Positions 450 to 34,079 of a stretch of DNA of 34,079 nt are shown one piece after another. The stretch comes from an uncultured Bacilli bacterium (lineage in GTDB: Bacteria > Bacillota_I > Bacilli_A > RFN20 > CAG-826). How positions within the stretch are numbered: the stretch's first letter is position 1; the number at the start of each line of letters is the position of its first letter. The translations under genes and the position numbers were made by a program. The DNA is taken from assembly GCA_944358755.1 (NCBI GenBank), contig CALVRY010000001.1, positions 1-34,079 of the forward strand, in the 5' to 3' direction. Below the pieces are notes generated by a model. The model searched no databases. It saw only the letters and a program-made list of their open reading frames with translations, and was not told the DNA's origin.

Positions 450-2305
450 GTGGAAATTTAATAGATTTAGCAAATGATATTTTAAGAAACGCTGATATAG
501 TCGAAGTAATTTCTCACTATATTAAAGTAGAGAAAAAAGGTAGAAATTATACTGGACTATGTCCTTTTCATGATGACAAATCTCTTGGAAATTTCTATAT
601 AAGTAAGGAAAAAGGGATTTTTAAGTGTTTTTCCTGCAATGCTGGCGGCAATGCAATCAATTTTGTTCAAAAAATCGAAAATCTATCTTATAAAGATGCA
701 GTTTTAAAAACAGCTGAATTAATTGGTTATCAAGATACAAGATTATTAAATTACCAAACAACAGTAAAAATTAATCCTGAAATTAAAGCAATCCAAGATT
801 GTTTAACAGAAATTAACAATTTTTATCAAAACAGTCTATTTTTTAGTGAAGATGGGAAAGATGCTTTAGATTATTTACATCATCGTGGATTAACTGATGA
901 TGTTATTAGATTTTTTAAGATTGGTTATGCTCAGTCAAAAGGTGAAAACATCATCGAATATTTAAAATCTAAGAATTTTTCGATTAAAACAATAGCAGAA
1001 ACAGGAATTATTCATTTAGAAACAACACCTTATAGAGATTTAAATGCTAATCGTATTACATTTGCAATTACTGATAGGAATAACCAAATTGTTGGTTTTA
1101 GTTGCAGAAAATTTAGAGATGGTGACACATCGAGTGCGAAATACGTAAATACATCTTCAACAAAATTATTTAATAAAGGAAATTTACTTTATAACTATTA
1201 CAACGCCTTGAACGAAGCTAAAAAATCTGGATATGTATATTTACTTGAAGGATTTATGGATGTTATTGCTTGCCATAGAGTTGGAATAAGAGCGGCAGTT
1301 GGATTAATGGGAACTGCATTATCTAAAGATAATTTGCAATCATTAAGATATTTCAATTGCGAAGTTCGACTTTGTCTTGATTTAGATGGTCCTGGACAGT
1401 TGAACATGAAAAAAATAAGCGATATTTTTGATGAATCAAATATTAAATATCGTCTAGTAAGTAACGAAGTAGACTTTCCAGAAAAAGATACTGATGAAAT
1501 TTTAAAAAAATATGGTGAAGATAAACTGAAAAGTTATCTTGCAAATCTTGTAAATAAGGGCGAGTGGTTAATCAAATACTTCAAAAAATCATTGAATTTA
1601 TCAACATTAGAAGGAAAAAAGCAAATTGTTAATAATTTAATACCCTATTTATCTACTTTAAAAGATGAATTAGAAATAGATTATTTTATTAATGAACTTT
1701 CTACTTTAAGTGGATATAGCTATCAAACAATTCAACAAGCTTTAAGAAGATATAACAAAAAATTAGATAAAAAGGACGAAGAAGCACTAAATGTTTTAAT
1801 TAAATCCAACAAAAGTGAGGCTCAAATTGTATTAAATAGGCTACAACTTGCCGAAAAGCAAGTTTTAAGATACATGTTGGAGAACAAAGATGTAATTGAG
1901 AAATATGACATTAAGTTAGGTTATTTTTCAACGCCTATTTATCGTGAAATAGCAAATGTAATCGAAGAATATGTTACACATATCCGAATAAACACTGATT
2001 ATAACATTAAAAATTTAATGACTTACTTATCCAGTGAAGATTTTGAAGCAAGAAATAAAGACAAAATCATGGCTGAAATTACTGATATTGCAGTCGATGA
2101 TTTCAAAGTGCCGCCTTATAGCGAGGAGCAATTTGATGATTTAATTCAAACCATTAACAAAGAAAGAGTTGAAAACCAAACTCTTGATGTTTATAAAAAT
2201 TCTTCTTTAAACAAAACCGAGATTGAGAAAGCAGAATACGCTAAAACATGTCTCGCTAAACTCAAATCGCTAATCGAAGAAGAAGATAAAAAAAGGAGGA
2301 ACTGA
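446..2305 (+). CDS. dnaG: DNA primase
   Basis: 619 aa. It has an N-terminal zinc-ribbon [26 protein letters not shown] and a TOPRIM region ([18 protein letters not shown]). It sits in the conserved glyS-dnaG-sigA order. Confidence 0.9.
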
Positions 2306-2307
2306 AT

Positions 2308-3585
2308 ATGGAAAGAAAAGTTAAAAAATCAACTAAGAAAAGCGAAGTAAAAATCGATGATATCGATACTAACGTCGAAGAAGTAAACATTGATGATTAC
2401 AATCCATCAGACGAAAAAGAAGATTTAATGACTTTAGATCAAATTGTTAAGAAATTTGAAGAAGCCAATAAAGATACAAAATTCATCGATCAAGATGAGT
2501 TTTTTGATGAAACTTCATATTTAGATTTAAGTGATCAAGATTATGAAAGAATATTTGATCATTTCAAAGAATTAGGCTACGAAGTTGCCGGCAGTAAAGA
2601 CAACGATTTAGAAAATGAAGATATGCCTGATGATTTTGATGAAAATGATTTAGAAAATGACGACACTTTCGATGATGATTTTGATAGCGATGAACAACAT
2701 CCTGAAAGTAACCTTGATATCAATAATTTAGATAACATCGAATCAAGCGATGTTAAAGTTAATGATAGCGTTAAACAATACTTAAAAGAAATTGGTAGAG
2801 TTCCTCTTTTAAAACCAAAAGAAGAAACTGAACTTGCAAAACGTATTGTTGCTGGCGATAAAAGAGCTAAAGATCAACTTATTAATGCTAATTTAAGATT
2901 AGTTGTTTCTATTGCTAAACACTACATTGGTAGAGGCATGCAATTCTTAGATCTTATTTCAGAAGGTAATTTGGGTCTTATTAAAGCAGTTGAAAAATTC
3001 GATTACAAAAAAGGATTCAAATTTTCAACATATGCAACTTGGTGGATACGACAAGCTATTACAAGAGCTATCGCTGATCAAGCAAGAACTATCAGAATTC
3101 CAGTCCATATGGTTGAAACAATCAACAAAATTACTAGAGTTCAAAGACAACTTGTCCAAGAATTAGGTAGAGAACCAACTGCAGAAGAAATTTCTAAGAA
3201 AATGGATAATGCTTTATCTCCAGATAGAATTAGAGAAATTACAACTTTAGCTTTAGAACCAGTTTCTCTTGAAAGTCCAATCGGTGAAGAAGATGACAGC
3301 CATCTTGGTGACTTCGTAGAAGACAAGGAATCAATTTCACCAACTGAATATACCAGAAAATCAATGAATCGTGATGCATTATTCAATGTTATGAACGATT
3401 TAACCGATAGAGAAGAAAGAGTTTTAAGATTAAGATATGGTTTAGATGACAATAGACCAAGAACTCTTGAAGAAGTAGGTAAAGAATTTGGTGTTACAAG
3501 AGAAAGAATCAGACAAATTGAAGCTAAAGCTATCAGAAAATTAAGACATCCAACAAGAACTAAAAAACTTGATGATTTACATTAA
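2308..3585 (+). CDS. sigA: primary RNA polymerase sigma factor (sigma-70/SigA) with a long acidic N-terminal region
   Basis: 425 aa. Region 2 is present ([30 protein letters not shown]), as is the region 4 HTH ([30 protein letters not shown]). A GGAGG SD lies upstream. Confidence 0.95.
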
Positions 3586-3591
3586 TTAATA

Positions 3592-4248
3592 ATGATTTCT
3601 GAGCGTTTAAAACAAATATCAAATTTTATTAATGATGACCATGATGTAGCTGACATTGGCAGCGACCATGGTCTTCTTTTGGTTTTATTATCTAATCGTA
3701 ATTTTTCGCATGAAGTATTAGGAGTAGAAAATAAAATCGGACCTTTTTCTAATTTAGAAAAGACCGTTAATAAAATTGCAAAAAATAATTTCAAATGCCT
3801 TTTATCAGACGGATTAAAAGATGTTAAAGGAAATTATAAAACAATTGTAATTGCAGGAATGGGTTATTCTAACTTAAAAAATATCCTTAATAAAGATAAA
3901 AATCTTAAATCTCGTGAAAAATTTGTTATCGATTGTCATACAAATCAAAAAGAAATTAGAAATTTATTTTATGAATTGGGATATAAAGTAGAGGATGAAA
4001 AAGTAATTTTTGAAGATTCAATATATTATGATGTCATTAAATTTGAAATAAATAATGATAATCAAACTTATAATTCGCTTGAATTAAAATATGGTCCATT
4101 AAATATAAAAAGAAAAGATGATATTTTTATTCAAAGATATAATAAACAATTATATAAAGTTAAAAATTTATGCAATTCTATTAGCAATCTTGAGCGTAAA
4201 AAAGAACTAGAGTTAGAAATAAAAGAATTGGAGGAAATTATTAAATGA
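3592..4248 (+). CDS. trmK: tRNA (adenine22-N1)-methyltransferase TrmK/YqfN family
   Basis: 218 aa with a DIGSDHG SAM-binding motif. It occupies the position after sigA, as in Bacillus. Its TGA stop overlaps the next ATG (4245-4248). Confidence 0.75.
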   Translation: MISERLKQISNFINDDHDVADIGSDHGLLLVLLSNRNFSHEVLGVENKIGPFSNLEKTVNKIAKNNFKCLLSDGLKDVKGNYKTIVIAGMGYSNLKNILNKDKNLKSREKFVIDCHTNQKEIRNLFYELGYKVEDEKVIFEDSIYYDVIKFEINNDNQTYNSLELKYGPLNIKRKDDIFIQRYNKQLYKVKNLCNSISNLERKKELELEIKELEEIIK

Positions 4249-5027
4249 AAACTAAGATTTTACTTAAAAAATTATCTAAATATTTTCCTAAATCACTCGC
4301 AGAAAGTTATGATCATGTTGGTTTACAATGTGGCAAACTTAAAGAAGAAACAAACACAGTTTTATTGTGCCTAGATTATGATGAAGATGTTTACGATTAT
4401 ATTCTTCAAAATCGTTTAGAGAATAAGCTTGATATGATTATTTCTCACCATCCTTTTATTTTTGGAACAAGAGCAAAAGTTCTTAAAAATGATCCTTTAA
4501 AAAAGGAATTATTTGATAAAACATCGGCTTTAAATATTCCTGTTTACAGCTATCACACCAATTTTGATGGCGGTAAAGAAGGAATGAATGATGCTTTAAC
4601 TCGTGAACTTGAGTTAATTGATATTAAACCACTAGAAAATGAGCCAATGGCAAGAGGCGGATATTTAAAAGAAGAGATGGAAATTCATGATTTTGCTAAA
4701 TATGCCGCAAAGAAACTTAATGTTAACTATGGAACTTTAATTAATAAAGGCACAAAAACGATAAAAAAAGTAGCCATCATTGGTGGAGGCGGTTGGAGTT
4801 CTTATCTTGCCGCCAAAAACGAAGGCTACGATATTTTTGTAAGTGGTGATATTCCTCATCATGGAAGAAGAGGAGTTGTCGCAAATAAATACAATTATTT
4901 AGATTTACCTCATGAAATTGAAAAAATATTCATGAAGCAATTTAAGAAAGTTTTACTTTCTATAGATTCTGAACTACAGATTTTACTTGTTGATCAAGAA
5001 GATCTCCCTGAATTCCTCTATATCTAA
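4245..5027 (+). CDS. Nif3-family dinuclear metal center protein (YqfO-like, short form)
   Basis: 260 aa with HHPFIF, YHTNFD and GDIPHH motifs typical of NIF3/GTP cyclohydrolase 1 type 2 homologs. A GGAGG SD is present. Confidence 0.85.
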   Translation: MKTKILLKKLSKYFPKSLAESYDHVGLQCGKLKEETNTVLLCLDYDEDVYDYILQNRLENKLDMIISHHPFIFGTRAKVLKNDPLKKELFDKTSALNIPVYSYHTNFDGGKEGMNDALTRELELIDIKPLENEPMARGGYLKEEMEIHDFAKYAAKKLNVNYGTLINKGTKTIKKVAIIGGGGWSSYLAAKNEGYDIFVSGDIPHHGRRGVVANKYNYLDLPHEIEKIFMKQFKKVLLSIDSELQILLVDQEDLPEFLYI

Positions 5028-5898: not shown

Positions 5899-5954
5899 GA
5901 AAGTATTTTAACATTTTTAATGAAAAAATGGGATAAATTATATAAAATGACTGC

Positions 5955-7316
5955 ATGCAATTTAAATCTTTTAATCTAAAACCAGAAATTATTAATGTTT
6001 TAAGTGACTTAGGTTACGTTAATTTAACAAAAATTCAAGAATTAGTGATTCCAAAAGCCTTAAAAGGAGAGAATATTATCGCTAAAAGTGAGACAGGGAG
6101 TGGAAAGACTCACGCTTTTATTGTTCCAATTATCAATAACATAGTTAGTGATAATAATTTACAAGCAATAATTATTAGTCCAACTAAAGAATTAGCTCAA
6201 CAAACATACTCATTTATCGTACAAATTGTAGAAAAATTAGAAAATATTACAGTAAAATTATTTTCAAGTGGTGAAGACACCACGAAAGACAGTAAATCTT
6301 TTTATAATGGTGCAAATATTATTGTTGCGACACCTGGCCGTTTATCATATTTATTAAATAACGTACAAATTGATTTATCAAATTTAAAAACAATCGTTCT
6401 TGATGAAGCGGATATGCTCATTGATAGAACTTTTATTGATGAAATTGATAAAATTTTTAGTATTGTCGACAAAAACAAGATTCAAATCGAAGTTTTTAGT
6501 GCAACAATATCGAATAATGTTAATGATTTTTTAAGAAAATATATTTCGCCTGACTATTTATTAACTGTTGATGACGAAAATAAAGCTTCAAAAAACGTTA
6601 AACATTTTTTCATCAACACCAAACACCAAGACAAATTCCAATTATTGTTAGATTTCATTAATTTAAAAAATCCTTATTTATTATTTGTTTTCGGTAATTC
6701 AAAAACTGAAGCCAAAAAAATATATGAATTTTTATCCGAAAATAAGTTTAAATGCGGATTTATTAGCGGTGAATTAGAAAAAAGAGAAAGAAGATCAATG
6801 CTTAGAAGAATCAAAAACGACCAATATCGTATTGTTGTCGGAACTGATTTGGCTGCAAGAGGCATTGATGTGGAAGATGTTAGTGATGTTTTAAACTTCA
6901 ACATTCCAAACAATTTAGAATATTATTATCACCGTGCAGGAAGAACAGGACGAATTGGCAAAAGTGGAAATTGCTATTCTTTTTATGATAACGATAATTT
7001 AAATTTGCCTTCAAAACTAATTAATGAAGGGCTGGAAGTGGAATACTTAAAATTTAACAATGGAGAATTAGTTAAAGATATTCCTTTAAATAAAGATATT
7101 AAAAAGAAAAAATCCAATGTTAATACAGATTTAGAAAGAGAAATCAAAAAAGCTAAATTTAAAGCAATGGGCAAAAAAGTTAAGCCTGGATACAAGAAAA
7201 AAGTTAAACAAGCAATTGATAAAGTCAAAAGAAAACATAGAAGAGAAGTCATTAAAAAAGACATTCGTAGACAAAGAGTCGAAAGATATAAAAACGAAGC
7301 CAAAAACAATATTTAG
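5955..7316 (+). CDS. cshB: DEAD-box ATP-dependent RNA helicase with a Lys/Arg-rich C-terminal tail
   Basis: 453 aa with Q-motif, GSGKTHAF, DEAD, SAT and HRAGRTGR. Its synteny matches B. subtilis yqfR (cshB), between ispH and ispG. Confidence 0.85.
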   Translation: MQFKSFNLKPEIINVLSDLGYVNLTKIQELVIPKALKGENIIAKSETGSGKTHAFIVPIINNIVSDNNLQAIIISPTKELAQQTYSFIVQIVEKLENITVKLFSSGEDTTKDSKSFYNGANIIVATPGRLSYLLNNVQIDLSNLKTIVLDEADMLIDRTFIDEIDKIFSIVDKNKIQIEVFSATISNNVNDFLRKYISPDYLLTVDDENKASKNVKHFFINTKHQDKFQLLLDFINLKNPYLLFVFGNSKTEAKKIYEFLSENKFKCGFISGELEKRERRSMLRRIKNDQYRIVVGTDLAARGIDVEDVSDVLNFNIPNNLEYYYHRAGRTGRIGKSGNCYSFYDNDNLNLPSKLINEGLEVEYLKFNNGELVKDIPLNKDIKKKKSNVNTDLEREIKKAKFKAMGKKVKPGYKKKVKQAIDKVKRKHRREVIKKDIRRQRVERYKNEAKNNI

Positions 7317-7373
7317 TGCTTAATTAGTATTTTATCAGTATATTATTAGTACATAATTAGTAGTAAATTAGTA
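7314..7373 (+). repeat. phased TAGTA array A (6 units, 11-bp register)
   Basis: The sequence reads TAGTGCTTAAT|TAGTATTTTAT|CAGTATATTAT|TAGTACATAAT|TAGTAGTAAAT|TAGTACATATC. It spans from the cshB stop to the ispG stop. Confidence 0.85.
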
Positions 7374-8420
7374 CATATCAATTAATTTATAAAGCTCGTT
7401 GAGAACATTTTCTTCATCTGTTGTTTTTAGTATTTTACCATGACTAAAGATTTGAAAAAGGCCATTACCGCCAGCAATTCCAATGTCAGCATTTTTTCCT
7501 TCACCTATGCCATTAACGATGCAGCCCATAACAGCAACAGTTAAATTTTTTTTATGTTGAATCATATATTCCAAAATTTTATCAGCTATTTGAGCAGTAT
7601 TTTTAACCATACATCGACCACATGTAGGACAGGTTATAATTGTTGGATAATTTTCATATAATCCAAGATCATGTAATAACCTTACACACGTTTTAATCTC
7701 TTTTTGAGGATTGTGCGTGAGAGAAATTCTAATAGTAGAACCAATTCCTTCAAGTAATAGAGGAGAAAGTGCACTCACAGATCTAATAATACCAATTTCG
7801 TCATAACCACTTTCAGTAACACCAATATGAAGAGGATAATTAGTTTTTTTACTCATTAAACGATAAGCTTTAATAGTTAGAAGTGGATTTGAAGCTTTTA
7901 CGCTTATAACGAGTTTAGAAAAACCATATTCTTCAAATTTTTTGATATATTTTAAAGCACTTTCAGTTAATTTTTCTTCTTCAGATAAATTAGATGAAGC
8001 TAAATCCTTTTCTAAAGAACCTTTATTAACCCCAATTCTAATTGCGACATCATACTTTTTAGCAACATCAATTATTCTTTTTAATTTCTCATCGCTTCCA
8101 ATATTTCCTGGATTTATTCGTATTTTATCAGCTCCATTTTCAATGGCTAAAATGCCTAAATTAGCATCAAAGTGTATATCAGCAACAATCGGAACGCTAA
8201 CTCTTTTTTTAATTTCTTTAATTGCATAAGCATCATCTTTATCTAAAATACTTACTCTCATCATTTGTGCGCCTAAAGCAGTGCATTCGTTGATTTCTTT
8301 GACAACTTCATGAATTTTAGAAGTTTTAATGTCGCACATTGATTGAATTATAACTTGATTATTTCCGCCAATTTGAATATTTCCTATTTTTACAGGAATT
8401 GTATTTTCTCTCGTACTCAT
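7368..8420 (-). CDS. ispG: 4-hydroxy-3-methylbut-2-en-1-yl diphosphate synthase (IspG/GcpE)
   Basis: 350 aa with VADIHFD, RINPGNIG and RIGVNKGSLEKDL. The Fe-S ligands are intact (CPTCGRC ... MGCIVNGIGEG). Confidence 0.9.
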   Translation of the reverse strand: MSTRENTIPVKIGNIQIGGNNQVIIQSMCDIKTSKIHEVVKEINECTALGAQMMRVSILDKDDAYAIKEIKKRVSVPIVADIHFDANLGILAIENGADKIRINPGNIGSDEKLKRIIDVAKKYDVAIRIGVNKGSLEKDLASSNLSEEEKLTESALKYIKKFEEYGFSKLVISVKASNPLLTIKAYRLMSKKTNYPLHIGVTESGYDEIGIIRSVSALSPLLLEGIGSTIRISLTHNPQKEIKTCVRLLHDLGLYENYPTIITCPTCGRCMVKNTAQIADKILEYMIQHKKNLTVAVMGCIVNGIGEGKNADIGIAGGNGLFQIFSHGKILKTTDEENVLNELYKLIDMY

Positions 8421-10122: not shown

Positions 10123-10140
10123 TAATATCAAAAGTCAATG

Positions 10141-10168
10141 AAAAACGCGATAATAATCGCGTTTTTTT
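10141..10168. terminator. bidirectional rho-independent terminator
   Basis: The sequence is AAAAACGCGAT-AATA-ATCGCGTTTTTTT. It forms a 7-bp GC-containing stem flanked by an A-run and a T-run. It lies between the convergent yneF and plsY. Confidence 0.7.
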
Positions 10169-10202
10169 ATTATCTGTAAAAATTTTGTAAGTTTTCCACA
10201 TA

Positions 10203-10229
10203 TACTAGAAAACTACTAATTATCTACTA
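10203..10229 (-). repeat. phased TAGTA array B (3 units, 11-bp register)
   Basis: The minus strand reads TAGTAGATAAT|TAGTAGTTTTC|TAGTATATGTG. On the plus strand, TACTA occurs at 10203, 10214 and 10225. The array lies immediately 3' of the plsY stop. Confidence 0.8.
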
Positions 10230-10986: not shown

Positions 10987-11170
10987 ATAATGATTTTACT
11001 ACATAAACTCATCTTTTTGATATCTGCTTTTTATAAAACCGCTTTCATAGGATAAAAAGCAAGCCATAAAGTTAAACAATTTTGATAAAATATTGTAATT
11101 TCTCTCAAAAAATCATCATTTTTTAATGAAAAATATTTATTAAAAAGTAATTAATAAAACAATATTTTTT

Positions 11171-11179
11171 TGATACAAT
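11171..11179 (+). promoter_or_regulatory. candidate extended -10 element (TGATACAAT) upstream of parE
   Basis: The element ends 15 nt before the parE ATG with no SD in between. This implies a very short leader if it is used. Confidence 0.3.
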
Positions 11180-11194
11180 TAATTAGTTGAATTT

Positions 11195-13126
11195 ATGAGT
11201 AATTATGATGCAAGCAATATAGAATTATTGTCTGGTCTTGAGGGAGTTAGAAAAAGACCAGCCATGTATATTGGAAGTACCAATAGCATGGGTTTACACC
11301 ATTTAGTTTGGGAAATAGTTGATAACGCAGTAGATGAAGCTTTAAATGGATTCGGAAATAAAATTACAGTAACAATCCACAAAGATGGATCGGTTTCTGT
11401 TCTTGATGAAGGACGTGGAATTCCTTGCGATATCCATAAGCAAACAAAAATACCTGCGATTCAACTCATTTTCTCAACATTACATAGCGGTGGTAAATTT
11501 AACGATACCGCTTACAAATCCTCAGCTGGACTTCATGGTGTAGGAAGTAGCGTTACAAATGCGCTAAGTGTTTTTTGTGATATCACCGTTTATCGTGATA
11601 ACAAAATCTACCATTTGAGATTTGAAAATGGTGGCAAATTGAAAACACCATTAGAAGTTTTAGGCTCTACAATAAAACACGGGACTCTTGTTACGTTTAA
11701 ACCAGACGACAAGATTTTCTCAACTGTTGAATTTAATTACGATAGAATCGCTTCCCATCTTCAAGAAAGCGCATTTCTTCTTAAAAAAGTCCGTTTTATC
11801 TTAATTGATGAAAGAAACGGCAATAAAGATGAATTTTATTATGAACACGGATTAAAAGAATATGTCGAAGAAATGAATCAAAACAAGACCCCAATTGGTC
11901 CTGTTGTATCTTTCGAAGATGAAAGCAATAATATTTCTACTGAAATTGCTATCCAATATTGTTATAACGACTATAACGAAACAATTAGAAGTTATGTAAA
12001 TAATGTTCATACAGCTGATGGTGGTACCCACGAAGTTGGTTTTAAAATTGGCATCACAAGAGCAGTTAATGAGTACGCCGAAAATAACAGTTTATTAAGA
12101 AGTAAAACTAAACTTGATGGAAGTGATATTAGAGAAGGTTTAACAGCTGTTATTTCTTTACGTTTACCTGAATCAATTCTTGAATTTGAAGGTCAAACTA
12201 AGGGAAAACTTGGCACACAAATCGCTCAAAATATTGTTTCTAACCTTGTTTATACTAAATTTTCTTACTATTTAAACGAAAATAAAGAATTTGCTGTTCG
12301 ACTTGTTAAAAAATGTCAAGATTCAATGAATGCTCGTCTTGCTGCAAGAAAAGCAAAAGATGAAGCTAGAACTAAGAAAAAATCAAAAGACAGCATTATT
12401 TTAAGTGATAAATTAACTCCAGCTCAAAGTAAAGATTACGATAAAAATGAACTTTTCATTGTTGAAGGAGATTCCGCAGGTGGAAGTGCCAAAAAAGGAA
12501 GAGACCCAAAATTCCAAGCAATTCTCCCTTTAAGAGGTAAACCATTAAATACTGACTCACTTACAATGGAAAAAATTCTTCAAAACCAAGAATTCGCAAC
12601 AATTATTAACACAATTGGAGCGGGAGTTGGTCAAAATTTTGATGTAAGTGAATCTCATTATGGAAAAATCATCATTATGAGTGATGCTGATACTGATGGA
12701 GCTCACATTCAAACTTTATTATTAACTTTCTTCTATAACAACATGAGATCTTTAATTACCGAAGGCAAAGTTTTTATTGCTGTTCCACCTTTATATCGTA
12801 TTTTTAAAACTGATGCTAAAGGTAAAACAACCGAAACTTACGCTTGGGATGATAAAGGTTTAGAAGAAGGTAAGAAAAAGATTGGTGCCGGATATAAAGT
12901 TTCACGTTATAAAGGACTTGGAGAAATGAGTCCTCAACAACTAAAAGCAACAACTATGGACCCAAAAAATAGATTATTAATCCAAGTTAACATTGATGAT
13001 CCATTAGCAGTTGAAAATAAAGTTGCTGTTTTAATGGGAAAAGATGCTGATAAACGTAAAAAGTGGCTCGAACAAAACGTTGACTTCAACGAAGAAGATT
13101 CTTTTATCAAGGAGGTAAGACATTAA
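11195..13126 (+). CDS. parE: DNA topoisomerase IV subunit B
   Basis: 643 aa with GHKL ATPase and TOPRIM motifs (GLHHLVWEIVDNAVDE, EGDSAGGSAK, IMSDADTDGAHI). It is paired with a ParC-type A subunit. Confidence 0.8.
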   Translation: MSNYDASNIELLSGLEGVRKRPAMYIGSTNSMGLHHLVWEIVDNAVDEALNGFGNKITVTIHKDGSVSVLDEGRGIPCDIHKQTKIPAIQLIFSTLHSGGKFNDTAYKSSAGLHGVGSSVTNALSVFCDITVYRDNKIYHLRFENGGKLKTPLEVLGSTIKHGTLVTFKPDDKIFSTVEFNYDRIASHLQESAFLLKKVRFILIDERNGNKDEFYYEHGLKEYVEEMNQNKTPIGPVVSFEDESNNISTEIAIQYCYNDYNETIRSYVNNVHTADGGTHEVGFKIGITRAVNEYAENNSLLRSKTKLDGSDIREGLTAVISLRLPESILEFEGQTKGKLGTQIAQNIVSNLVYTKFSYYLNENKEFAVRLVKKCQDSMNARLAARKAKDEARTKKKSKDSIILSDKLTPAQSKDYDKNELFIVEGDSAGGSAKKGRDPKFQAILPLRGKPLNTDSLTMEKILQNQEFATIINTIGAGVGQNFDVSESHYGKIIIMSDADTDGAHIQTLLLTFFYNNMRSLITEGKVFIAVPPLYRIFKTDAKGKTTETYAWDDKGLEEGKKKIGAGYKVSRYKGLGEMSPQQLKATTMDPKNRLLIQVNIDDPLAVENKVAVLMGKDADKRKKWLEQNVDFNEEDSFIKEVRH

Positions 13127-13127
13127 T

Positions 13128-15761
13128 ATGGTTAGAAAAGAAATTGTTGAACCTATTTCCGAAAATGTTAGTGTTGAATCTCTTGATACTGTAATGGGTG
13201 ATAAATATGCGGTTTACGCAAAATATGTCATTCAAGATAGAGCTATTCCGGATGTTAGAGATGGTTTAAAACCAGTACAAAGAAGAATCATCTACTCAAT
13301 GTATCAAAACGGCAACACTTATGAAAAGCAAACTAAAAAGTGTGCCAAAATCGTCGGTGATGTTATGGGTAGATTTCACCCTCACGGTGACTCTTCAATT
13401 TATGAAGCATTAGTCAGAATGTCTCAACCTTGGAAAATGTCTGAACCATTAGTTGTTTTTCAAGGAAATAATGGTTCAATCGATAACGATCCAGCAGCTG
13501 CTTATCGTTACACTGAAGCAAAATTAAACGAATTTAGTGAAAATTTAATCGATGATATCGATAAAAATACAGTCGACATGTCTTTAAACTTTGATGATAC
13601 AGAGTTTGAACCAGTCGTTTTACCATGCCGTTTTCCAAATTTATATGTTAATGGAAGTGATGGAATTGCTGTTGCAATTGCAACTCAAATTCCGCCTCAC
13701 AATTTAAATGAAATGTGTAATGCGGTTATTTATCGTATTCAACATCCATCATGTTCACTTGATGAACTATTAGAAATTGTTCAAGGTCCTGATTTTCCAA
13801 CCGGTGGCGTTATCTATAAATCCCAAGGAATTAGAGATATTTATGAAACAGGTCGTGGAAAAATCGAAATTGCTTCGAAATTAACAGTTAATACATCAAA
13901 TAAGAACTTTAACGAAATAGTCATTACTGAAATTCCTTATGGTGTTGTTAAGCAAAACCTTGTTTTTAGTATTGATAAAATCAAAAAATCACACGAAATT
14001 GATGGAATAAACGAAGTTAAAGATCTTTCTAGTGGTGATAATATTGAAATTGTTATCGAAACCAAAAAAGAAGTTGATCCACAAATTATCATTGCTTATT
14101 TAATGAACAAAACTCAATTAAAGGTTTCTTATTCTTCAAATATTGTTGCAATTTGTGATAAACATCCAAAAACTTTATCTTTAACTGATTATTTAGATTA
14201 CTATATTACTTTCCAAGTTGAAGTAATTACTAGAAGAACTGAATTTTTACTTAAAAAAGCCAAAGATAGATTACATATTGTCGAAGGCTTAATTAAGGCG
14301 ATTAGTATTATTAATGAAGTTGTTGCTCTTATTAGAAAAAGTAAAGATAAAGCTGATGCAAAAATCAATTTACAAAAAGCATTTGGCTTTACCGAACCTC
14401 AATCTGAAGCAATCGTTTCAATGAGATTATATAGACTCACTAATACAGACGTCACGATTTATACAGTAGAAAGAGACAATTTAATTGCTCAAATTAAAGA
14501 TTTTGAAGAAACTTTATCAAATCCAAACAAATTAAGAAAAATTATTATTAATGATTTAAAAGAAATCGTTAAAAAGTTTGGAAGAGATAGAAGATCCATT
14601 ATTGAAGAAAAAGAAGAAGAAATTCAAATCGATAAGCGTGATCTCATTGCAAAAGAAGATGTTTATGTTGTTGTAACTCGAGATGGCTACATTAAACGTA
14701 GTAGTTTAAAGAGCTATAAATCTTCAAATGGCGCATTACCTGGAGTAAAAATTAATGACTCAATTGTAATGGCGGATATTGCAAATACTGTCGATTATGT
14801 CTTATGTTTTACCGATAAAGGCAATTATATTGTTTTACCAGTACACGAAATTTTAGAAGGTAAATGGAAAGATGAAGGAAAACACATTAACTACATTTGT
14901 AATTTACCTTTAAAAGAATCAATTATTAAATGTATTATCGTTAAAGATTTTAATATTGGTGTTACAATTTGTTCAGTTTCTAAACTTGGACAAATTAAAA
15001 AGACCTATTTAAGCGAATTTTATTCTCAAAGAACAAATAAACCAATTTGTTGTATGAAATTAACAAGCACAGATGAAATGGTTGATGTTTGTGTATTACA
15101 TGGTAATTCAAACATTTTAATCATGACAAAAGCTGGAAAAGCAACATATTTCAATGAAAATGATATTGCTGATACAAGATTAAAAACAAGCGGTGTTAAA
15201 TGTATAGCAACTTTAAGCGATTCGACAATTTGTTCAGTTACACCATTTGAAATTGGCGAAAGATGCAAGTTACTTTTCTTAACAAATTTGGGTATGTGCA
15301 AGATTTTAGATTCAAATACACTAAATTTACGACACAGATTAGAAAAATGTGATATGCTTCTTAAATCATTTAAAACTGAAATTCATGATTTAATAACACT
15401 TAAAAAAGTTACTAATGGTACTGATAAAGTAGTAATGGATTGCATTTTAGACAATTCTTCTAATTTAGAGCTTACTTTTGATGATTTCCATGTAACACCA
15501 TTAGAAAAATATTGCAGAAAGAATATTGATGCTCTTCCTGACGGTAGAAAGATTTCGTTTATTTTCAATTTTGAGGTAGAAAAAGTAGATGAAAAGACAA
15601 AAGTTGAAAAAAGAAGAGCAAGAAGCGTTTCAAAACCAGCTATTGATGATCAACAAGTTAAAGTTGTAAAAATCGATTATGAAGGCGAAATCGAACAAGA
15701 TTTACCTGAAGAAACTGGCAAAGTTGAACAAATTTCAATATTTGACGATATGGGCGATTAA
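13128..15761 (+). CDS. parC: DNA topoisomerase IV subunit A
   Basis: 877 aa. It has DGLKPVQRR (Q as in ParC, where GyrA has H) and an AAAYRYTEAKL active-site Tyr region. The C-terminal domain has no GyrA box (QRRGGKG). It carries an acidic C-terminal tail. Confidence 0.8.
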   Translation: MVRKEIVEPISENVSVESLDTVMGDKYAVYAKYVIQDRAIPDVRDGLKPVQRRIIYSMYQNGNTYEKQTKKCAKIVGDVMGRFHPHGDSSIYEALVRMSQPWKMSEPLVVFQGNNGSIDNDPAAAYRYTEAKLNEFSENLIDDIDKNTVDMSLNFDDTEFEPVVLPCRFPNLYVNGSDGIAVAIATQIPPHNLNEMCNAVIYRIQHPSCSLDELLEIVQGPDFPTGGVIYKSQGIRDIYETGRGKIEIASKLTVNTSNKNFNEIVITEIPYGVVKQNLVFSIDKIKKSHEIDGINEVKDLSSGDNIEIVIETKKEVDPQIIIAYLMNKTQLKVSYSSNIVAICDKHPKTLSLTDYLDYYITFQVEVITRRTEFLLKKAKDRLHIVEGLIKAISIINEVVALIRKSKDKADAKINLQKAFGFTEPQSEAIVSMRLYRLTNTDVTIYTVERDNLIAQIKDFEETLSNPNKLRKIIINDLKEIVKKFGRDRRSIIEEKEEEIQIDKRDLIAKEDVYVVVTRDGYIKRSSLKSYKSSNGALPGVKINDSIVMADIANTVDYVLCFTDKGNYIVLPVHEILEGKWKDEGKHINYICNLPLKESIIKCIIVKDFNIGVTICSVSKLGQIKKTYLSEFYSQRTNKPICCMKLTSTDEMVDVCVLHGNSNILIMTKAGKATYFNENDIADTRLKTSGVKCIATLSDSTICSVTPFEIGERCKLLFLTNLGMCKILDSNTLNLRHRLEKCDMLLKSFKTEIHDLITLKKVTNGTDKVVMDCILDNSSNLELTFDDFHVTPLEKYCRKNIDALPDGRKISFIFNFEVEKVDEKTKVEKRRARSVSKPAIDDQQVKVVKIDYEGEIEQDLPEETGKVEQISIFDDMGD

Positions 15762-16000
15762 GAAATCACTTGTATCGAATTAATAAACGTAACAATTAAG
15801 ATTATAGTTAGTGAAACAATGGCAATGATGTCAAAAACAAAAATGTGGAGTAGTGTAATGTTTTCTCTTTTAGAAGATAAAACAAGCGAAGGAACGAGAA
15901 ATAAATATCCAATAAATGGTATAAAAACTGAAATAATGACTCCAATAGTGCTTAAGCCAATACACAAATTTTGTCTAGTTTTGATATCTAATTTATCCAT
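15758..16000 (-). CDS. possible small two-TM membrane protein (hypothetical)
   Basis: 80 aa with two clear hydrophobic helices. Its stop overlaps the parC stop antiparallel (TTAA). No convincing SD was seen. The competing plus-strand ORF 15819-16055 looks non-coding. Confidence 0.35.
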   Translation of the reverse strand: MDKLDIKTRQNLCIGLSTIGVIISVFIPFIGYLFLVPSLVLSSKRENITLLHIFVFDIIAIVSLTIILIVTFINSIQVIS

Positions 16001-16059
16001 GTTTAAAATTACATTTCAAACCACCAAAAATTCAATCAAATTAGCAAAAAGTTGATAAT

Positions 16060-16097
16060 TAGTAGGTTCTTAGTAGTTTTCTAGTAAATAATAGGTA
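16060..16097 (+). repeat. phased TAGTA array C (3 units plus a slipped fourth)
   Basis: The sequence reads TAGTAGGTTCT|TAGTAGTTTTC|TAGTAAATAAT|AGGTATG. TAGTA occurs at 16060, 16071 and 16082. The array ends 8 nt before the yqeG ATG. Confidence 0.8.
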
Positions 16098-16104
16098 TGT
16101 ATTC

Positions 16105-16626
16105 ATGTTTAAAATATTCACGCCAACATATGTTGCAAAAAATGTTTATGAAATAAATGTCGATTTTTTTAAAAAGATTGGAATCAAATGTATCATCTGT
16201 GATCTCGACAATACACTTGATGCTTATTACGAACAATATCCAACAGAAAAAGCCATGGATTTCGTTAAAAAATTAAAAGAAGCAGAAATCGATATTTTTC
16301 TAACCTCAAACAATACCGAAACAAGAGTAAAACCATATGCCGATAAATTAAATATCAACTATATTTTTTCGTGCAGAAAACCTTTAGTTTTCAAGTTCAA
16401 AAAAGTATTAAAAAATTTCAAATATGATCGAAAAGATTGCTTAATCATTGGCGACCAAGTTTTTACTGATGTACTTTTTGCAAATAGACTAAAAATTAAA
16501 TCAATTTTGTGCGATAATTTAGTAAGTAAGGACCAATTCTTTACTAAAATTAATAAGTTCTTCGATAAATACATTAGAAGATACTTAAAAAAGCACAATA
16601 AATTAACCGATTGGAGGGAAATTTAA
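16105..16626 (+). CDS. yqeG: YqeG-family HAD phosphatase
   Basis: 173 aa with the DLDNTL HAD motif I and GDQVFTD motif. It is the first gene of the conserved yqeG-yqeH operon. Confidence 0.8.
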   Translation: MFKIFTPTYVAKNVYEINVDFFKKIGIKCIICDLDNTLDAYYEQYPTEKAMDFVKKLKEAEIDIFLTSNNTETRVKPYADKLNINYIFSCRKPLVFKFKKVLKNFKYDRKDCLIIGDQVFTDVLFANRLKIKSILCDNLVSKDQFFTKINKFFDKYIRRYLKKHNKLTDWREI

Positions 16627-28906: not shown

Positions 28907-30665
28907 TATCCTTCTCCTTTATAACTTCAATTCCTAATTTATCTAATTGCTCTTTATCAACTTCATAAGGAGCATTGGAAACTGGATCAACTGCAGCTAA
29001 ATTTTTAGGGAAGGCAATAACATCACGAATATTATCTGTTCCACTCAAAATCATCGCTAGTCTATCTAAACCACAAGCAAATCCACCATGTGGAGGTGTG
29101 CCATATTTTAATGATTCAACGAAGAAACCAAATTTTTTATTGATATCTTCTTGAGTAAATCCAAGGACTTTAAATATCATTTCTTGAACTTTTTGGTCGT
29201 AAATTCTTAAAGAACCACCGCCAGCTTCATATCCATTAATGACAATATCATAAGCATAGCTATAAACGTTATATGGTTCGGTGAACAATTTATCTATATC
29301 TTCATCACATGGTCTTGTGAATGGATGGTGACAAGGTGTAATTTCGCCTGTTTCTTCGCTCTTTTCGAATAAAGGGAAATGTACAACCCAGAGCAAATCA
29401 TAAGTATTTGGTTTAATTAAACCTAATTCTTTAGCAAGTGTACTACGGACAGCACCTAAGCCGAAGTTAATATCTCTTAAAATATTACCGGTTGCAATAA
29501 TAAGTGCGTCGCCTTCATTAACTTCCATTGCTTTTTTTAGTTCTTCTTGAAGTTCAGGAGAAATAAATTTAGCAATACTTCCTTCAAATGCACCATTTTC
29601 ATATTTAAGGTATGCAAATTGTTTCATATTAAATTTTGGTGCAATTAAGTTGATAGTATCTTGTCTCTTTCTGCTTAAATCTTTAGCAAAATTTTCTACC
29701 TTGATCGCCTTAATATATTTGTTATCTTGATATAATTTGAATTCAGATCTACTAAGAATGTACTTAATATCTACTAGAAACATACTAAAACGTGTGTCTG
29801 GCTTATCAGAACCATATTTATTTACTGCTTCAAGATAATCCATTCTTCTTAAAGGTAATTTAACATCAAAATCGATAACATCTTTGAAAATTTTAGCGAT
29901 AAGTCCTTCTCCTAAAGATAAAATTTCATCTTGATTTAAAAAGCTTGTCTCAACATCGATTTGTGTAAAATCAGGTTGTCTATCTGCTCTTAAATCTTCA
30001 TCTCTGAAACATCTAGCGATTTGATAATATCTTTCAAATCCTGCAACCATAAGCATCTGTTTATAAAGTTGAGGAGATTGAGGTAATGCATAAAAAGAAC
30101 CTTTATGCACTCTACTTGGTACTAAATAATCTCTCGCGCCTTCTGGAGTTGATGGAGAAAGATAAGGTGTTTCAATTTCAATAAAATCATGCGAATCAAG
30201 ATATTCATGAGTAGCTTTAACGATTTTTGCTCTAATTTTAAAGCGGCGTTGCATACAGTTTCTTCTTAAATCAAGATATCTATATTTAAGACGAATATCT
30301 TCATTAGCATCAGTTACTTCTTGAGTTGAAATTGGAGGTTGCATTGCAGTATTAATTACTTTAATTTCACTTGCTAAAACCTCAACTTCTCCAGTTGCTA
30401 AATTTTTATTTGAAACATCTTTTTTACTAACAATCCCTTTAACTTGAAGAACATATTCGTTTCTAATATCAGGAAGCTTGATTTCATCAGTTTTTACGCA
30501 AATTTGAACATAACCTTCTCTATCTCTTAAATCGATAAAAAGAAGACTTCCTAAATTACGCTTTTTAGAAACCCAACCTAATAAAGAAACTTCTCTACCT
30601 ACATCTTTAAGACGTAAAGTTCCACAATAATCAGTTCTAACGAACTTTTCTTCAACGTTTTCCAT
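28899..30665 (-). CDS. aspS: aspartate--tRNA ligase
   Basis: I prefer the start at ATG 30665 (MENVEEKFVRTDYCGTLR). It gives 588 aa and leaves a 20-nt spacer after hisS. Class II motifs are present (FRDEDLRADRQPDFTQ, GGFACGLDR). Confidence 0.9.
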   Translation of the reverse strand: MENVEEKFVRTDYCGTLRLKDVGREVSLLGWVSKKRNLGSLLFIDLRDREGYVQICVKTDEIKLPDIRNEYVLQVKGIVSKKDVSNKNLATGEVEVLASEIKVINTAMQPPISTQEVTDANEDIRLKYRYLDLRRNCMQRRFKIRAKIVKATHEYLDSHDFIEIETPYLSPSTPEGARDYLVPSRVHKGSFYALPQSPQLYKQMLMVAGFERYYQIARCFRDEDLRADRQPDFTQIDVETSFLNQDEILSLGEGLIAKIFKDVIDFDVKLPLRRMDYLEAVNKYGSDKPDTRFSMFLVDIKYILSRSEFKLYQDNKYIKAIKVENFAKDLSRKRQDTINLIAPKFNMKQFAYLKYENGAFEGSIAKFISPELQEELKKAMEVNEGDALIIATGNILRDINFGLGAVRSTLAKELGLIKPNTYDLLWVVHFPLFEKSEETGEITPCHHPFTRPCDEDIDKLFTEPYNVYSYAYDIVINGYEAGGGSLRIYDQKVQEMIFKVLGFTQEDINKKFGFFVESLKYGTPPHGGFACGLDRLAMILSGTDNIRDVIAFPKNLAAVDPVSNAPYEVDKEQLDKLGIEVIKEKDNG

Positions 30666-30685: not shown

Positions 30686-32074
30686 TTAAGCTTTTTTGCA
30701 GCAACCATCATGATGATGACAGCAATGACCTTCTTCATGATCATGTTTGCATTCACAATCATCGCCTTCACAACATTCACATTCGTGGTGGTGATGTTCG
30801 CTCTCGCTATTAAAATATTTCCCTAAAAAATCATCTAAATCATCTAATTTGACACTAACTTGCTCTTTAGTATCTAATTTTTTAACAGTTACTGTTTCAT
30901 TAAGAATTTCATCATCTCCAATAATAAAGGCTAATTTTGAATTTCTTCTCTCGGCCTTTTTAAACATTTGACCCATTCCTTTTTGTTCGTAACAAACTTC
31001 ACAAGAATAGAATGCTTTTCTTAGTTGGAAAGCAAGTCCTACTGCAAAATCTCTTGCTTTATCACCCATTGGCATAATAAAGATGTCAGTTGTATTATCT
31101 AAATTAGGGAAAAGATTGTCATCTTCCATAACTTTTGCAAGTCTTTCAATACCAAATGCAAATCCAACACCTTCTAAATCAGGTCCACCAATTTCTTTAA
31201 TAAGATTTCCATAGTGGCCACCAGCGCCAATTGCGCCATAATTATTTCCGTTTTGTGAAGTATAATGGAATTCGAATACAACTCCAGTGTAATAATCAAG
31301 GCCTCTAACTAATTCTTGATCAACTTCAAACGGAATTTCTAATTTCGTTAAGTATTCTTTAACTTTTTCAAATCTTTCTTTAGCAGCATCAGTTAAATAA
31401 TCTTGAATTTTAGGAGCTCCATCAATAATTGGCCTATCAGCCGGATCTTTACAATCAAGAATACGAAGAATGTTTAATTTATAACGTTCTTGGCAATCAG
31501 AACACATATTTTCGATATGTTTTCCAAAATATTCTTTTAAAGCAGTTTTATAATTTTCTCTACTTTGTTCATCACCAAGTGTGTTAATTAAAAGTTTAAC
31601 TTTACCAAAATTAAGATATTTAAGCATTGTATATCCAAGAGCAATAACTTCAACATCTCGTTCAACAGTTGTTACACCTGTACATTCGATACCAAATTGA
31701 TTAAATTGTCTATATCTTCCTTGTTGTGGTCTTTCATAACGGAAGTTTGGTCCACAATAAAAAGCTTTAACAGGATAATCTTGAATAGCAAAAAGTTTTG
31801 CATTAACCATGCTTCTAATAATTCCTGCTGTCATTTCAGGTCTTAAAGTTATATTTCTTCCACCTTTATCTTCAAAAGTATACATTTCTTTTCTAACAAT
31901 ATCGCTACTATCGCCAACCGAACGTGTGAACAAATCACTGCTTTCAATTACAGGAGTTCTGAATTCTTGATAACCATAAATAACAGCGATATTTGTCATA
32001 ACTTCTTCGATATAAGAGTACTTCTTTGCTTCTTCTTTTATGACATCGTGTGTTCCTTTTACAACATTAAACAT
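30686..32074 (-). CDS. hisS: histidine--tRNA ligase with a C-terminal Cys/His-rich extension
   Basis: 462 aa with a canonical HisRS core (KGTHD, RPEMT, FRYERPQQGRYRQF, GGRYD-like GAGGHYGN). A 41-aa tail follows: NSESEHHHHECECCEGDDCECKHDHEEGHCCHHHDGCCKKA. Confidence 0.9.
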   Translation of the reverse strand: MFNVVKGTHDVIKEEAKKYSYIEEVMTNIAVIYGYQEFRTPVIESSDLFTRSVGDSSDIVRKEMYTFEDKGGRNITLRPEMTAGIIRSMVNAKLFAIQDYPVKAFYCGPNFRYERPQQGRYRQFNQFGIECTGVTTVERDVEVIALGYTMLKYLNFGKVKLLINTLGDEQSRENYKTALKEYFGKHIENMCSDCQERYKLNILRILDCKDPADRPIIDGAPKIQDYLTDAAKERFEKVKEYLTKLEIPFEVDQELVRGLDYYTGVVFEFHYTSQNGNNYGAIGAGGHYGNLIKEIGGPDLEGVGFAFGIERLAKVMEDDNLFPNLDNTTDIFIMPMGDKARDFAVGLAFQLRKAFYSCEVCYEQKGMGQMFKKAERRNSKLAFIIGDDEILNETVTVKKLDTKEQVSVKLDDLDDFLGKYFNSESEHHHHECECCEGDDCECKHDHEEGHCCHHHDGCCKKA

Positions 32075-32137: not shown

Positions 32138-34079
32138 CTAATGAATAACTCTTTTTACTTCGTAAATATCTTTTGTGCTAGTTAAAATACTTTCGACGTG
32201 ATTTAAAACGTTGGCATCACTAACATAAATTTGAGCATAAACGCTTGTTCTATTGGTATCTGGATGCATTTTAGCTGTCATTTCAGTACATTTAATCTTA
32301 TTTGAATTAAAGATATTTAAAATATCCGCAACTAAATTTTGACGATCTATACATTCGATAACAATATCAACTGGATATGATTTAATACCTAGATTTTCTT
32401 TCCAATGAACAGGAATTAATCTGTTTCTTAATCCTGTTACATTAGGGCAATTAATTCTATGAACTGTTATACCATTACCTTTTGTAACATAACCTACAAT
32501 GTTATCCCCTGGAATTGGCGTACAGCAATTTCCTAAGGTAATTTTAAAGCCAGTTTGACCATCAACAGTGACTGGGCAATTGTCGTCATCAAAGTTTTCT
32601 TTCTTAAAAAGTTTATTAAAATTATCGTCTTTCCTTTTAATTCCTAAAAAGTCTGCAATTTGACTTGGGTTAGGATTATGAGCACAAATTTGAATGAATA
32701 AGTCCTCAATAGTAGAAGATTGGTAGTTTTTTAGTACTTTTTCAGTATTTAATAAGTTCATCATTTCTCTTTCGTCGATACCTCTATCTTTGAAAAAGTC
32801 CTCTGCTATTTGTTTTCCTTGTCTAATTTTATCGTCTCTTAAATAGAGAGCGTTCTTCTTTTGTAAGAACTTTTTAATGTGACTTTTAGCACTATTTGTT
32901 TTAACAATATTTAACCAGTTTTCGTTTGGACCAGGTGATGTTTTTGAAGTTCTAATTTCGACGATATCACCTGTTTTTAAGACTGTATTTAATGGAACAA
33001 GATTTCCGTTAACCATTGCTCCTATTGCAGAATCACCAACTTTAGTATGAATTTTATAAGCTAAATCTAATGGGGTCGAACCATTTGGCAAATCGATGAC
33101 TTTTCCTTTTGGAGTAAAGACATAAACATTCGCTTCAAAAATATCTTTACTTAAAGATTCCATATATTCAGTCGCACTCTTATTTTGAGTTTCGCTATTT
33201 ATATGTAAGAAATCACGGAACCAATGAAGTTTTTCTTCAATTTCATGTTGCTCTTGTTTTGGACTATAATGACTTCCTTCTTTATATCTCCAGTGAGCTG
33301 CAACACCAGTTTCAGCAATTTCATCCATCTCTTTAGTACGAATTTGAACCTCAAAGATATTTCCATCACCTGCAATAATCGATGTATGTAAAGATTGATA
33401 CATATTTGGTTTAGGCATTGCGATATAATCCTTAAATCTACCAGGAATAGGTTTAAAATGTGCGTGAATCAAGCCTAAAATTTCGTAACAATTTAATTCT
33501 GTTTCGGTAATAATTCTTAAAGCTAAAAAGTCATAAATTTCATCAAATGTATGGCCTTTTAAATACATTTTCTTATAAATTGAGTAAATTGACTTAATAC
33601 GAGACTCAATTTCAAATTTTATATTTTGTTCAATTAAAATATCAGCTATTTTTTTCTTTAAATTGTTTAACGCTCTTGTTCTATTTTTAATTTTTTCATC
33701 AAGTTCGCGAGCTATTGCATGATATTCATCAGGTTTTTCGACTTCTAGAGATAAATCTTCGAGTTGACTTTCAACTCTATAAATACCTAAACGGTGGGCA
33801 ATTGGAGCAAAAACTTCAAGAGTTTCTTTAGCAAGAGCATGTTGTCTTTCAGGTTTAAGCGCCTTAACTGTTCTCATATTATGAAGTCTATCAGCAAGTT
33901 TAATAATAATAACACGAACATCTTTTGCCATACCTAAAAAGATTTTTTTATGATCTTCAGCTGCAAATTCCTCTTCGGTTCTATGTGAAAGTTTCAATCT
34001 TTGAATTTTTGTCAATGCATCAACAATTCATGCGCAATCTTCTCCATATAATTTCTTAATATCATCGATTGTGGTTTCA
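32138..34079 (-). CDS. relA: RelA/SpoT-family (p)ppGpp synthetase/hydrolase, 5'-partial, with an in-frame TGA at 34028-34030
   Basis: The 625-aa ORF carries the HD-domain end (DRLHNMRT) and the synthetase, TGS and ACT regions. The same frame continues upstream of a single TGA as ETTIDDIKKLYGEDCA*IVDALTKI. That segment aligns with the B. subtilis RelA sequence ...FGSEVAMLVDGVTKL. Confidence 0.8.

Follow-up and report, generated by a model that had tools for sequence, protein, structure and literature searches.

Phased TAGTA arrays downstream of stop codons in uncultured gut Bacilli: candidate transcribed binding sites at gene ends

Why should the spacer between two convergent genes consist entirely of a short tandem repeat? 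This question is raised by a stretch of 34,079 nt on a metagenome contig from an uncultured Bacilli bacterium (GenBank assembly GCA_944358755.1, contig CALVRY010000001.1, positions 1 to 34,079), hereafter referred to as the window, in which the complete spacer between the stop codon of a DEAD-box helicase gene and the stop codon of ispG is occupied by array A1. Similar arrays are found at further sites of the window and in related genomes. We favour the reading that they are transcribed post-stop elements with binding sites for one oligomeric sequence-specific factor, to which we assign a probability of about 35%. A1 itself is composed as follows:

7314 to 7373, plus strand: array A1, six 11-bp units, namely TAGTGCTTAAT, TAGTATTTTAT, CAGTATATTAT, TAGTACATAAT, TAGTAGTAAAT and TAGTAC

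The pentamers TAGTG (7314), TAGTA (7325), CAGTA (7336) and TAGTA (7347, 7358 and 7369) follow each other in exact 11-bp steps, and reading of positions 7100 to 7600 confirmed this register, which the original prediction had described as free of slippage. The TAG at 7314-7316 in unit 1 is the stop codon of the cshB-like open reading frame (ORF) 5955-7316, whose product carries the Pfam domains DEAD and Helicase_C. The TTA at 7368-7370, located in unit 6, is the reverse complement of the TAA stop codon of the minus-strand ORF 7368-8420, which is identified as ispG by its GcpE domain; both overlaps with stop codons had been noted before and are correct. Tandem Repeats Finder detected periods of 11 and 22 in A1. 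A stem-loop terminator had been said to be missing from this spacer, and this holds: a terminator scan found no terminator-like site at A1, and folding of the spacer RNA against shuffled sequences gave z values of -0.82 and +0.34 for the two strands, i.e., the RNA has no significant structure.

Arrays of this kind do not arise by chance. The window contains 18 matches to TAGTA-N6-TAGTA-N6-TAGTA with up to two mismatches, compared to 0.11 in dinucleotide shuffles. Five arrays are present in the 1.2 kb of intergenic DNA of the window, while the shuffle mean is 0.014 (up to one mismatch) and none of 500 shuffles reached five; the comparison with shuffled intergenic DNA, which had been proposed as a check, therefore yields no comparable arrays. 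For the analysis of related genomes, an IspG-based scan with one genome per species was used, which resulted in 58 loci; the related loci (designated by L and a number) are genome pieces of about 20 kb, and their genes come from crude ORF calls. When same-strand TAGTA pairs were counted in the intergenic DNA of the clade, 91 pairs had a distance of 11, none a distance of 10 and one a distance of 12, and additional peaks were seen at 22, 33 and 44. Alignment of 183 units revealed that the TAGTA box (positions 0-4) is 91-100% conserved, with G at position 2 in 99% of the units. At position 5, G is the preferred base, and at position 7 it is T (78%); the other positions are only A/T-biased, so that the units, which are arranged head to tail, have the consensus Y-TAGTA-G-W-T-W-W-Y. 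Most units lack A-tracts of four or more bases. The number of units per array varies between species from three to seven, and the density amounts to roughly one array per 7-8 kb. Since the pentamer and the register are fixed while spacers and unit number turn over, selection acts on both the pentamer and the 11-nt register, and the spacers drift.

The arrays have a defined position and strand. On the sense strand, TAGTA is enriched 0-40 nt past stop codons (9-12 per 10-nt bin versus about 1-2 elsewhere), and no enrichment past stop codons was found for TACTA. Every independent array site is sense to its upstream gene; these genes are cshB, plsY, parC, the gene for a 183-amino acid ORF, xseB, era, recO, glyQS, uppS, htpG and the end of the yqeG operon. 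Most arrays start 0-9 nt past the stop codon of the upstream gene. Where convergent genes overlap, the partner gene contains the array in antisense orientation, at a distance of 120-250 nt past the stop codon of the sense gene: nine species have an array within ispH, 120-145 nt past the nif3 stop, and two loci (L018 and L059) have one within cshB, about 250 nt past the ispG stop. The original prediction that A1 belongs to a family is thus borne out by arrays in the window and in related loci. Its count of five more arrays in the window came close, as four further intergenic arrays and two weaker intragenic ones were found:

10203 to 10229, minus strand: array A2, three perfect units TAGTAGATAAT TAGTAGTTTTC TAGTA, beginning 4 nt past the plsY stop codon at 10234
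16049 to 16097, plus strand: array A3, AAGTTGATAAT TAGTAGGTTCT TAGTAGTTTTC TAGTAAATAAT AGGTA, with its end 8-18 nt upstream of the yqeG ATG at 16105
18844 to 18881, minus strand: array A4, AAGTAGATAAT TAGTAGATTAT TAGTAGATAAA TAGTA, beginning 9 nt past the stop codon of the 183-amino acid ORF (18891-19442)
24717 to 24754, minus strand: array A5, AAGTGAATAAT TAGTAGATTAT TAGTAGTTTTC TAGTA, with the xseB stop codon in unit 1
29750 to 29787, minus strand: weaker four-unit array in aspS, sense, with every TAG out of frame and one unit reading AAGTA
32710 to 32747, plus strand: weaker four-unit array in relA, antisense, with TAGTA, TGGTA, TAGTA and CAGTA

All three convergent spacers of the window carry an array, and three of its four divergent spacers have none. 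A terminator hairpin is located downstream of A4 at approximately 18770-18808, and the last TAGTA of A5 lies 5 nt upstream of the dinB ATG at 24711. The genes that flank the arrays are housekeeping genes in conserved synteny, and no Rep gene is among them. The relatives that were retrieved for the aspS array all share at least 91% AspRS identity, so that selection on this array cannot be read from them.

How far does the family extend? Arrays occur in metagenome-assembled genomes (MAGs) labelled 'Candidatus Onthovivens', uncultured Bacilli or Mollicutes, whose IspG identity is at least about 54%. They were not found in Catenibacterium, other Erysipelotrichales, Lachnospiraceae and the rest of the outgroup (L034-L060), even at similar G+C content; the exception outside the lineage is one array in a Coprobacillus locus (L031). 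Judged from these loci, the array family is specific to a 'Candidatus Onthovivens'-like lineage of uncultured gut Bacilli. Among 2.9 million viral contigs, 28 single matches were obtained, which resembles background. Orthologous sites with differing spacers and unit numbers are kept after plsY and between parC and yqeG, xseB and dinB, and era and recO. The array between parC and yqeG is present in about 19 species. In L020, it starts 1 nt past the parC stop, and therefore the array 'upstream of yqeG' is a post-stop array as well. The era-recO array overlaps the last eight codons of era, and its third TAG is the era stop codon. Further sites are found between recO and glyQS, between glyQS and dnaG, downstream of uppS and of htpG and where the yqeG operon ends. 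In the sister species (L209 and L210, 91% AspRS identity), A4 and A5 persist with changed spacers, and A5 is kept in L134, L209, L210 and L212 at the same 5-nt distance to the dinB ATG. An 80-amino acid ORF without a Pfam match (15758-16000, minus strand) lies between parC and A3, is convergent to parC and overlaps its stop codon by 4 nt; this ORF is present in most relatives and is missing in L020.

The cshB/ispG adjacency itself is present in some species only, and in most others a gene similar to that for endonuclease IV (nfo) adjoins ispG. It had been suggested that A1 should be compared with orthologous spacers, and the closest of these, L003 (95% IspG identity) and L004 (83%), keep pentamers and register; in L004, the array is positioned after a hairpin. 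A1 was found in register in these two loci only. L018 and L019 have ordinary hairpins where A1 would be, and the cshB/ispG spacers of L026, L028 and L059 are short and contain no array. Because only its two closest relatives share it, A1 is a young copy within an old array family.

The site after plsY is the most conserved one and combines the array with two further elements:

10192 to 10200, minus strand: DnaA-box-like site TGTGGAAAA, an 8/9 match to the reverse complement of the DnaA-box consensus TTATCCACA
10140 to 10167, both directions: bidirectional intrinsic terminator hairpin common to a small UPF0154 gene and plsY

An array at this position is present in about 20 related species, and in nearly all of them it lies 1-5 nt from the stop codon, despite a free spacer of approximately 100 nt. 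The DnaA-box-like site begins 2 nt past the last TAGTA of A2, and in 14 related loci besides the window it is found as TGTGGAAAA or TGTGGATAA at a fixed offset of +2, +3 or +13. All 15 DnaA-box-like sites that adjoin arrays belong to the plsY site; none is present at A1 or at any other array site, which rules out a general link between the arrays and DnaA boxes. The strong terminator is conserved 37-49 nt past the plsY array, and its stem varies between species by compensatory substitutions. The spacer past the array (10130-10202, minus strand, and the corresponding stretch of L003-L023 and L208) shows blockwise conservation in the order DnaA-box-like ATGTGGAAAACT, about 20 nt, an A-run, the hairpin and TTTTTnATTGAC; a second, inverted TTTTCCACA is present in some species.

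The window also offers a reference point for orientation along the chromosome. A dif-like site, ACTTCGTATAATATCTATTATGTAAATT, is located at 18723-18750 on the plus strand, is unique in the window and matches the B. subtilis dif sequence at 24 of 28 positions. Since cumulative GC skew and gene orientation both switch exactly at this site, the replication terminus appears to lie within the window; the cumulative GC skew is that of a terminus and not of an origin. A gene for a XerD-like protein is found at 22625-23509, and the 183-amino acid ORF (18891-19442, minus strand) that adjoins the dif-like site encodes a conserved protein without a Pfam family; the same holds for a protein of 991-1009 amino acids encoded between ruvB and recJ (L209-L212, about 1700-4700). 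Four of the five arrays of the window point towards dif. The opposite direction is seen for the plsY array and for those located within cshB past ispG, all of which nevertheless follow their gene. Gene orientation is therefore the better predictor: it accounts for all ten independent array sites of the window and the related loci, compared to eight of ten for an orientation set by replication of the KOPS or Ter type, which was rejected on this basis.

What, then, do the arrays do? In the reading that we favour, they would be transcribed as part of 3' untranslated regions (UTRs) or between cistrons, and the UAGUA boxes are predicted to be the binding sites of a single oligomeric sequence-specific factor. 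The role of this factor would be to mark the upstream cistron's end or to protect it; the factor might block 3' exonucleases or direct processing, and it might additionally or instead insulate or attenuate the next gene. We infer the recognition at the level of the RNA or on the non-template strand, the single oligomeric factor and the role at 3' ends. The transcript-level reading is favoured because it needs the fewest assumptions to account for the strand bias, the proximity to stop codons, the lack of structure in the RNA and the embedded arrays. A bolder version, which we consider rather unlikely, holds that post-stop 11-nt UAGUA arrays are an undescribed, hairpin-independent gene-end signal that is read strand-specifically by a dedicated oligomeric factor and defines mRNA 3' ends or insulates neighbouring genes. 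Several points weigh against transcribed post-stop elements. Helical phasing on double-stranded DNA would predict a strict 11-nt spacing that persists while the spacers diverge, and in known arrays of RNA-protein sites the spacing is usually free to vary. In the pieces of about 20 kb that represent each genome, no candidate factor was found, and the assumption that the arrays are transcribed comes from gene layout. At plsY and at the 183-amino acid ORF, a strong hairpin terminator follows the array, and a simple terminator role would therefore be redundant there. The array of L004 lies downstream of a hairpin, where an element that acts in the mature 3' UTR would be of no use; in L163, an array is located 110 nt from the htpG stop, and A3 lies about 290 nt from the parC stop. 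Finally, the proximity to stop codons could partly result from seeding by tandem TAG/TAA stops and subsequent slippage.

Nearly as likely as the transcribed element is a polar array of double-stranded DNA sites, a tentative alternative that also comes closest to the cooperative operator array of the original prediction. Here, a protein of the winged-helix type would bind head to tail to TTAGTAG boxes on one face of the helix and act as nucleoid-associated protein or polar barrier, with the orientation relative to RNA polymerase mattering. That the exact 11-bp period is kept despite spacer turnover argues for this possibility, as does the build of the unit from about seven conserved and about four A/T base pairs, which is that of the direct repeats bound by OmpR/PhoB-type regulators. 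The placement of every pentamer on one helix face, as stated in the original prediction, is approximate only: at 10.5 bp per turn the phase drifts by about 17 degrees per unit. The DnaA-box-like site in fixed register beside the plsY array fits as well, and DNA-binding domains that read related motifs are known: the winged helix of Rok prefers the 5-bp sites TACTA and AACTA (PMC6212790), and the operator of FapR is TTAGTACCTAGTCTTAA (PMC12281612). On the other hand, the perfect sense-strand bias and the proximity to stop codons demand an additional assumption on polarity, promoter regions are avoided (three of the four divergent spacers of the window lack an array), and one array per 7-8 kb is too dense for an ordinary regulon. 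A homologue of Rok was not found in the clade loci, which cover a small part of each genome: with a Rok sequence that is identical to PDB entry 5ZUZ as query, a word-based homology search returned Bacillus proteins only, and tblastn of the clade loci with the C-terminal domain of Rok returned nothing.

Three further explanations fare less well. It is unlikely that the arrays are hairpin-independent, factor-dependent terminators or attenuators of sense transcription, which act via the nascent RNA or as polar roadblock, insulate neighbouring genes and lower the expression of the next gene. This would agree with the arrays in all three convergent spacers, the missing hairpin at A1, the strand specificity of embedded arrays relative to the convergent partner gene and the array of L004, which follows a hairpin like a back-up terminator. 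Moreover, the genes downstream that abut an array (recO, dnaG, dinB and yqeG) mostly lack a Shine-Dalgarno sequence, and their products are proteins of low abundance. However, the conserved terminator past the plsY array makes a terminator function of the array redundant at the most conserved site, genes whose start codon abuts an array (the yqeG operon and dinB of the window) have no room for a promoter of their own, and the RNA is C-poor and so contains no loading site for Rho. Slightly more doubtful is the idea that no dedicated factor exists and that the arrays are slippage-prone minisatellites seeded by tandem stops, intrinsically curved DNA or a three-frame stop barrier. Unit numbers of three to seven between species, the frequent start of arrays at a TAG or TAA stop codon and the 11-nt period, which puts TAG in all three frames, are in line with this idea, but a neutral repeat would diverge at all 11 positions and not in the spacers only. 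The arrays are moreover kept at orthologous sites across deep divergence, and curvature leaves the strand bias unexplained. A stop barrier would also accept TAA and TGA, and it is ruled out by the substitution pattern, i.e., by G in 99% at position 2 and by the AAGTA and CAGTA variants, which lose the stop. Very improbable is a replication motif, in which TAGTAG would serve as DnaA-trio or DnaD recognition sequence or as polar Ter- or KOPS-like site around the terminus. TAG corresponds to the consensus of the DnaA-trio, 3'-GAT-5', read in the 5'-3' direction (PMC8287927), the B. subtilis origin has an unwinding strand complementary to 5'-CTACTATTACTTCTACTA-3', i.e., TAGTAGAAGTAATAGTAG (PMC10201434), the plsY array adjoins a DnaA-box-like site, and the window contains the dif-like site towards which most of its arrays point. 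Nevertheless, the box is confined to plsY (15/15), the 11-nt unit holds at most two contiguous trios, while at least three contiguous NAN trios are required by the oriC rule (PMC8287927), the plsY array and the cshB-embedded arrays follow their own gene away from dif, and the GC skew shows a terminus. The resemblance to a DnaA unwinding element is real, but the arrays fail the rule on contiguous trios; a DnaA box no more than 16 bp from the trios, which also belongs to the oriC unwinding system, is present at the plsY array only.

Other named classes were also tried, and the original prediction, which could not assign A1 to a named element class, is supported in this respect: classical iterons, operators, terminators, DnaA unwinding elements and stop-codon barriers each fail a test. 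Its suggestion of the geometry of iterons, operator arrays or bent DNA, however, is unsupported as stated: there is no replicon or Rep gene, the arrays are located past stop codons and not in promoters, and their sense-strand bias is perfect, which neither the geometry of double-stranded DNA alone nor curvature would predict. Iterons are repeats of 17-22 bp near a Rep gene or an origin, while the unit found here has 11 bp and is flanked by housekeeping genes. An array of transcription factor operators in a promoter does not agree with post-stop positions in convergent and intercistronic spacers. An intrinsic terminator, i.e., a G+C-rich stem-loop followed by a U run, is excluded at A1 since its RNA folds no better than shuffles; A2 and A4 are followed by separate hairpins. 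For a Rho loading (rut) site, the composition is wrong: the sense RNA has G and almost no C, and the A1 antisense RNA has no YC dinucleotides. Shine-Dalgarno mimicry is ruled out by base composition and sequence, and a REP/BIME-type repeat by the direct orientation of the repeats, folding z values near 0 and the absence of a palindromic hairpin. With the gathering threshold, Rfam produced no match in the window, and even E-values up to 1 gave none at the arrays; no tRNA genes are present in the window, and a literature search on TAGTA or TAGTAG arrays found nothing relevant.

The closest known systems share some features with the TAGTA arrays. REP/BIME elements of enterobacteria are short, high-copy, intergenic sequences in post-stop or intercistronic position; cotranscribed with the gene upstream, they influence the stability of that cistron and its expression. 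REPs are imperfect palindromes, which function as hairpins and owe their spread to RAYT transposases. The TAGTA arrays likewise are short, repeated intergenic elements past stops and between cistrons, but they are unstructured direct repeats held at orthologous sites. The MIRU of mycobacteria are tandem repeats in intercistronic spacers, which are oriented with the operon and overlap stop and start codons. In this respect they resemble the TAGTA arrays; however, their units comprise 46-101 bp with small ORFs and lack a 5-bp box at an 11-bp period. The pho box of OmpR/PhoB-type regulators and the ParR-bound parC repeats of plasmid R1 consist of 11-bp head-to-tail units with a conserved core and an A/T-rich spacer, as do the TAGTA arrays, and are bound cooperatively on one face. 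Such sites are found within promoters or in the centromeres of plasmids, as parts of small regulons or at a single locus, whereas the TAGTA arrays occur about once per 7-8 kb, past stops and with a strand bias. At the RNA level, the sites of TRAP and HutP are repeated UAG-containing motifs on unstructured RNA, which are bound by a ring-shaped oligomer. This is the likeness to the TAGTA arrays, but TRAP and HutP sites have spacers of 2-4 nt, are found in 5' leaders and act via terminator or antiterminator hairpins, in contrast to the 11-nt period and post-stop position of the arrays. The sites preferred by Rok, TACTA and AACTA, are the complements of TAGTA and TAGTT, which are both present in the arrays; however, Rok binds broad AT-rich islands, has not been reported to bind phased arrays and is restricted to some Bacillus species (PMC6212790). 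TAGTAG equals two DnaA-trios, and its complement CTACTA contains the TnnT motif read by DnaD (PMC8287927, PMC10201434). DnaA-trios, however, are contiguous with a 3-nt period and occur at least three in a row at the origin (PMC8287927). In the TAGTA arrays, each 11-nt unit holds two of them, and the arrays are found at many sites and close to the terminus.

The search pattern also returned repeats outside the lineage. A second family of 11-bp arrays was detected on rumen and gut contigs of about 50% G+C, which are Bacteroidales-like (L095, L123, L127, L131, L135-L137, L184, L213-L215 and others among L091-L201). Its repeat consists of TAGTAyGCGAT, then TAGTAGGTKAT in four to ten copies, and a tail of about 40 nt, which is conserved. 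Many of these loci have a Bacteroidetes-type promoter (TAnnTTTG) on one side of the array and, on the other, the gene for a highly conserved hypothetical protein of 145 amino acids, for which no Pfam family was found and whose AlphaFold model is of low quality (pLDDT 62). The Shine-Dalgarno-like AGGTGAT is part of the units, which have no match in Rfam; a literature search on this repeat unit likewise found nothing relevant. In a third variant (L118, L171, L174 and L197), GAGTAGGTGAT is present in four copies, after which come GGTGATTCCCGAATGGATAAC-like repeats; this variant is intergenic on contigs of 51-54% G+C. Many metagenome matches (L089-L208, e.g., L098, L125, L138, L160 and L186) are long TAGTAG-containing satellites in DNA of low coding density, which are probably eukaryotic and appear unrelated to the bacterial arrays.

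Some observations concern the genes of the window. Upstream of the helicase gene (5920-5957, plus strand), a -10-like TAAAAT ends 6 nt before the ATG and no Shine-Dalgarno sequence is present, so that the helicase mRNA may be leaderless. The parE gene also lacks a Shine-Dalgarno sequence (region 11151-11197, plus strand), although most genes here have AAGGAG. The histidyl-tRNA synthetase HisRS (30686-32074, minus strand) has a C-terminal tail rich in Cys and His (ending in SESEHHHHECECCEGDDCECKHDHEEGHCCHHHDGCCKKA), which looks like a metal-binding extension.

For practical purposes, the arrays can be used to mark gene ends and strand in the annotation of these MAGs, and they may break assemblies. 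If a factor reads them, they would provide a clean model of the evolution of tandem site arrays, in which boxes and register are fixed while spacers and copy number turn over. The lineage would then possess a genome-wide gene-end signal of its own, with about one array per 7-8 kb, and with it a hairpin-free, sequence-specific 3'-end or insulator system of a kind that is rare in bacteria. Should the bolder version be true, gene ends would have a third type of signal in these arrays, in addition to intrinsic and Rho-dependent terminators.

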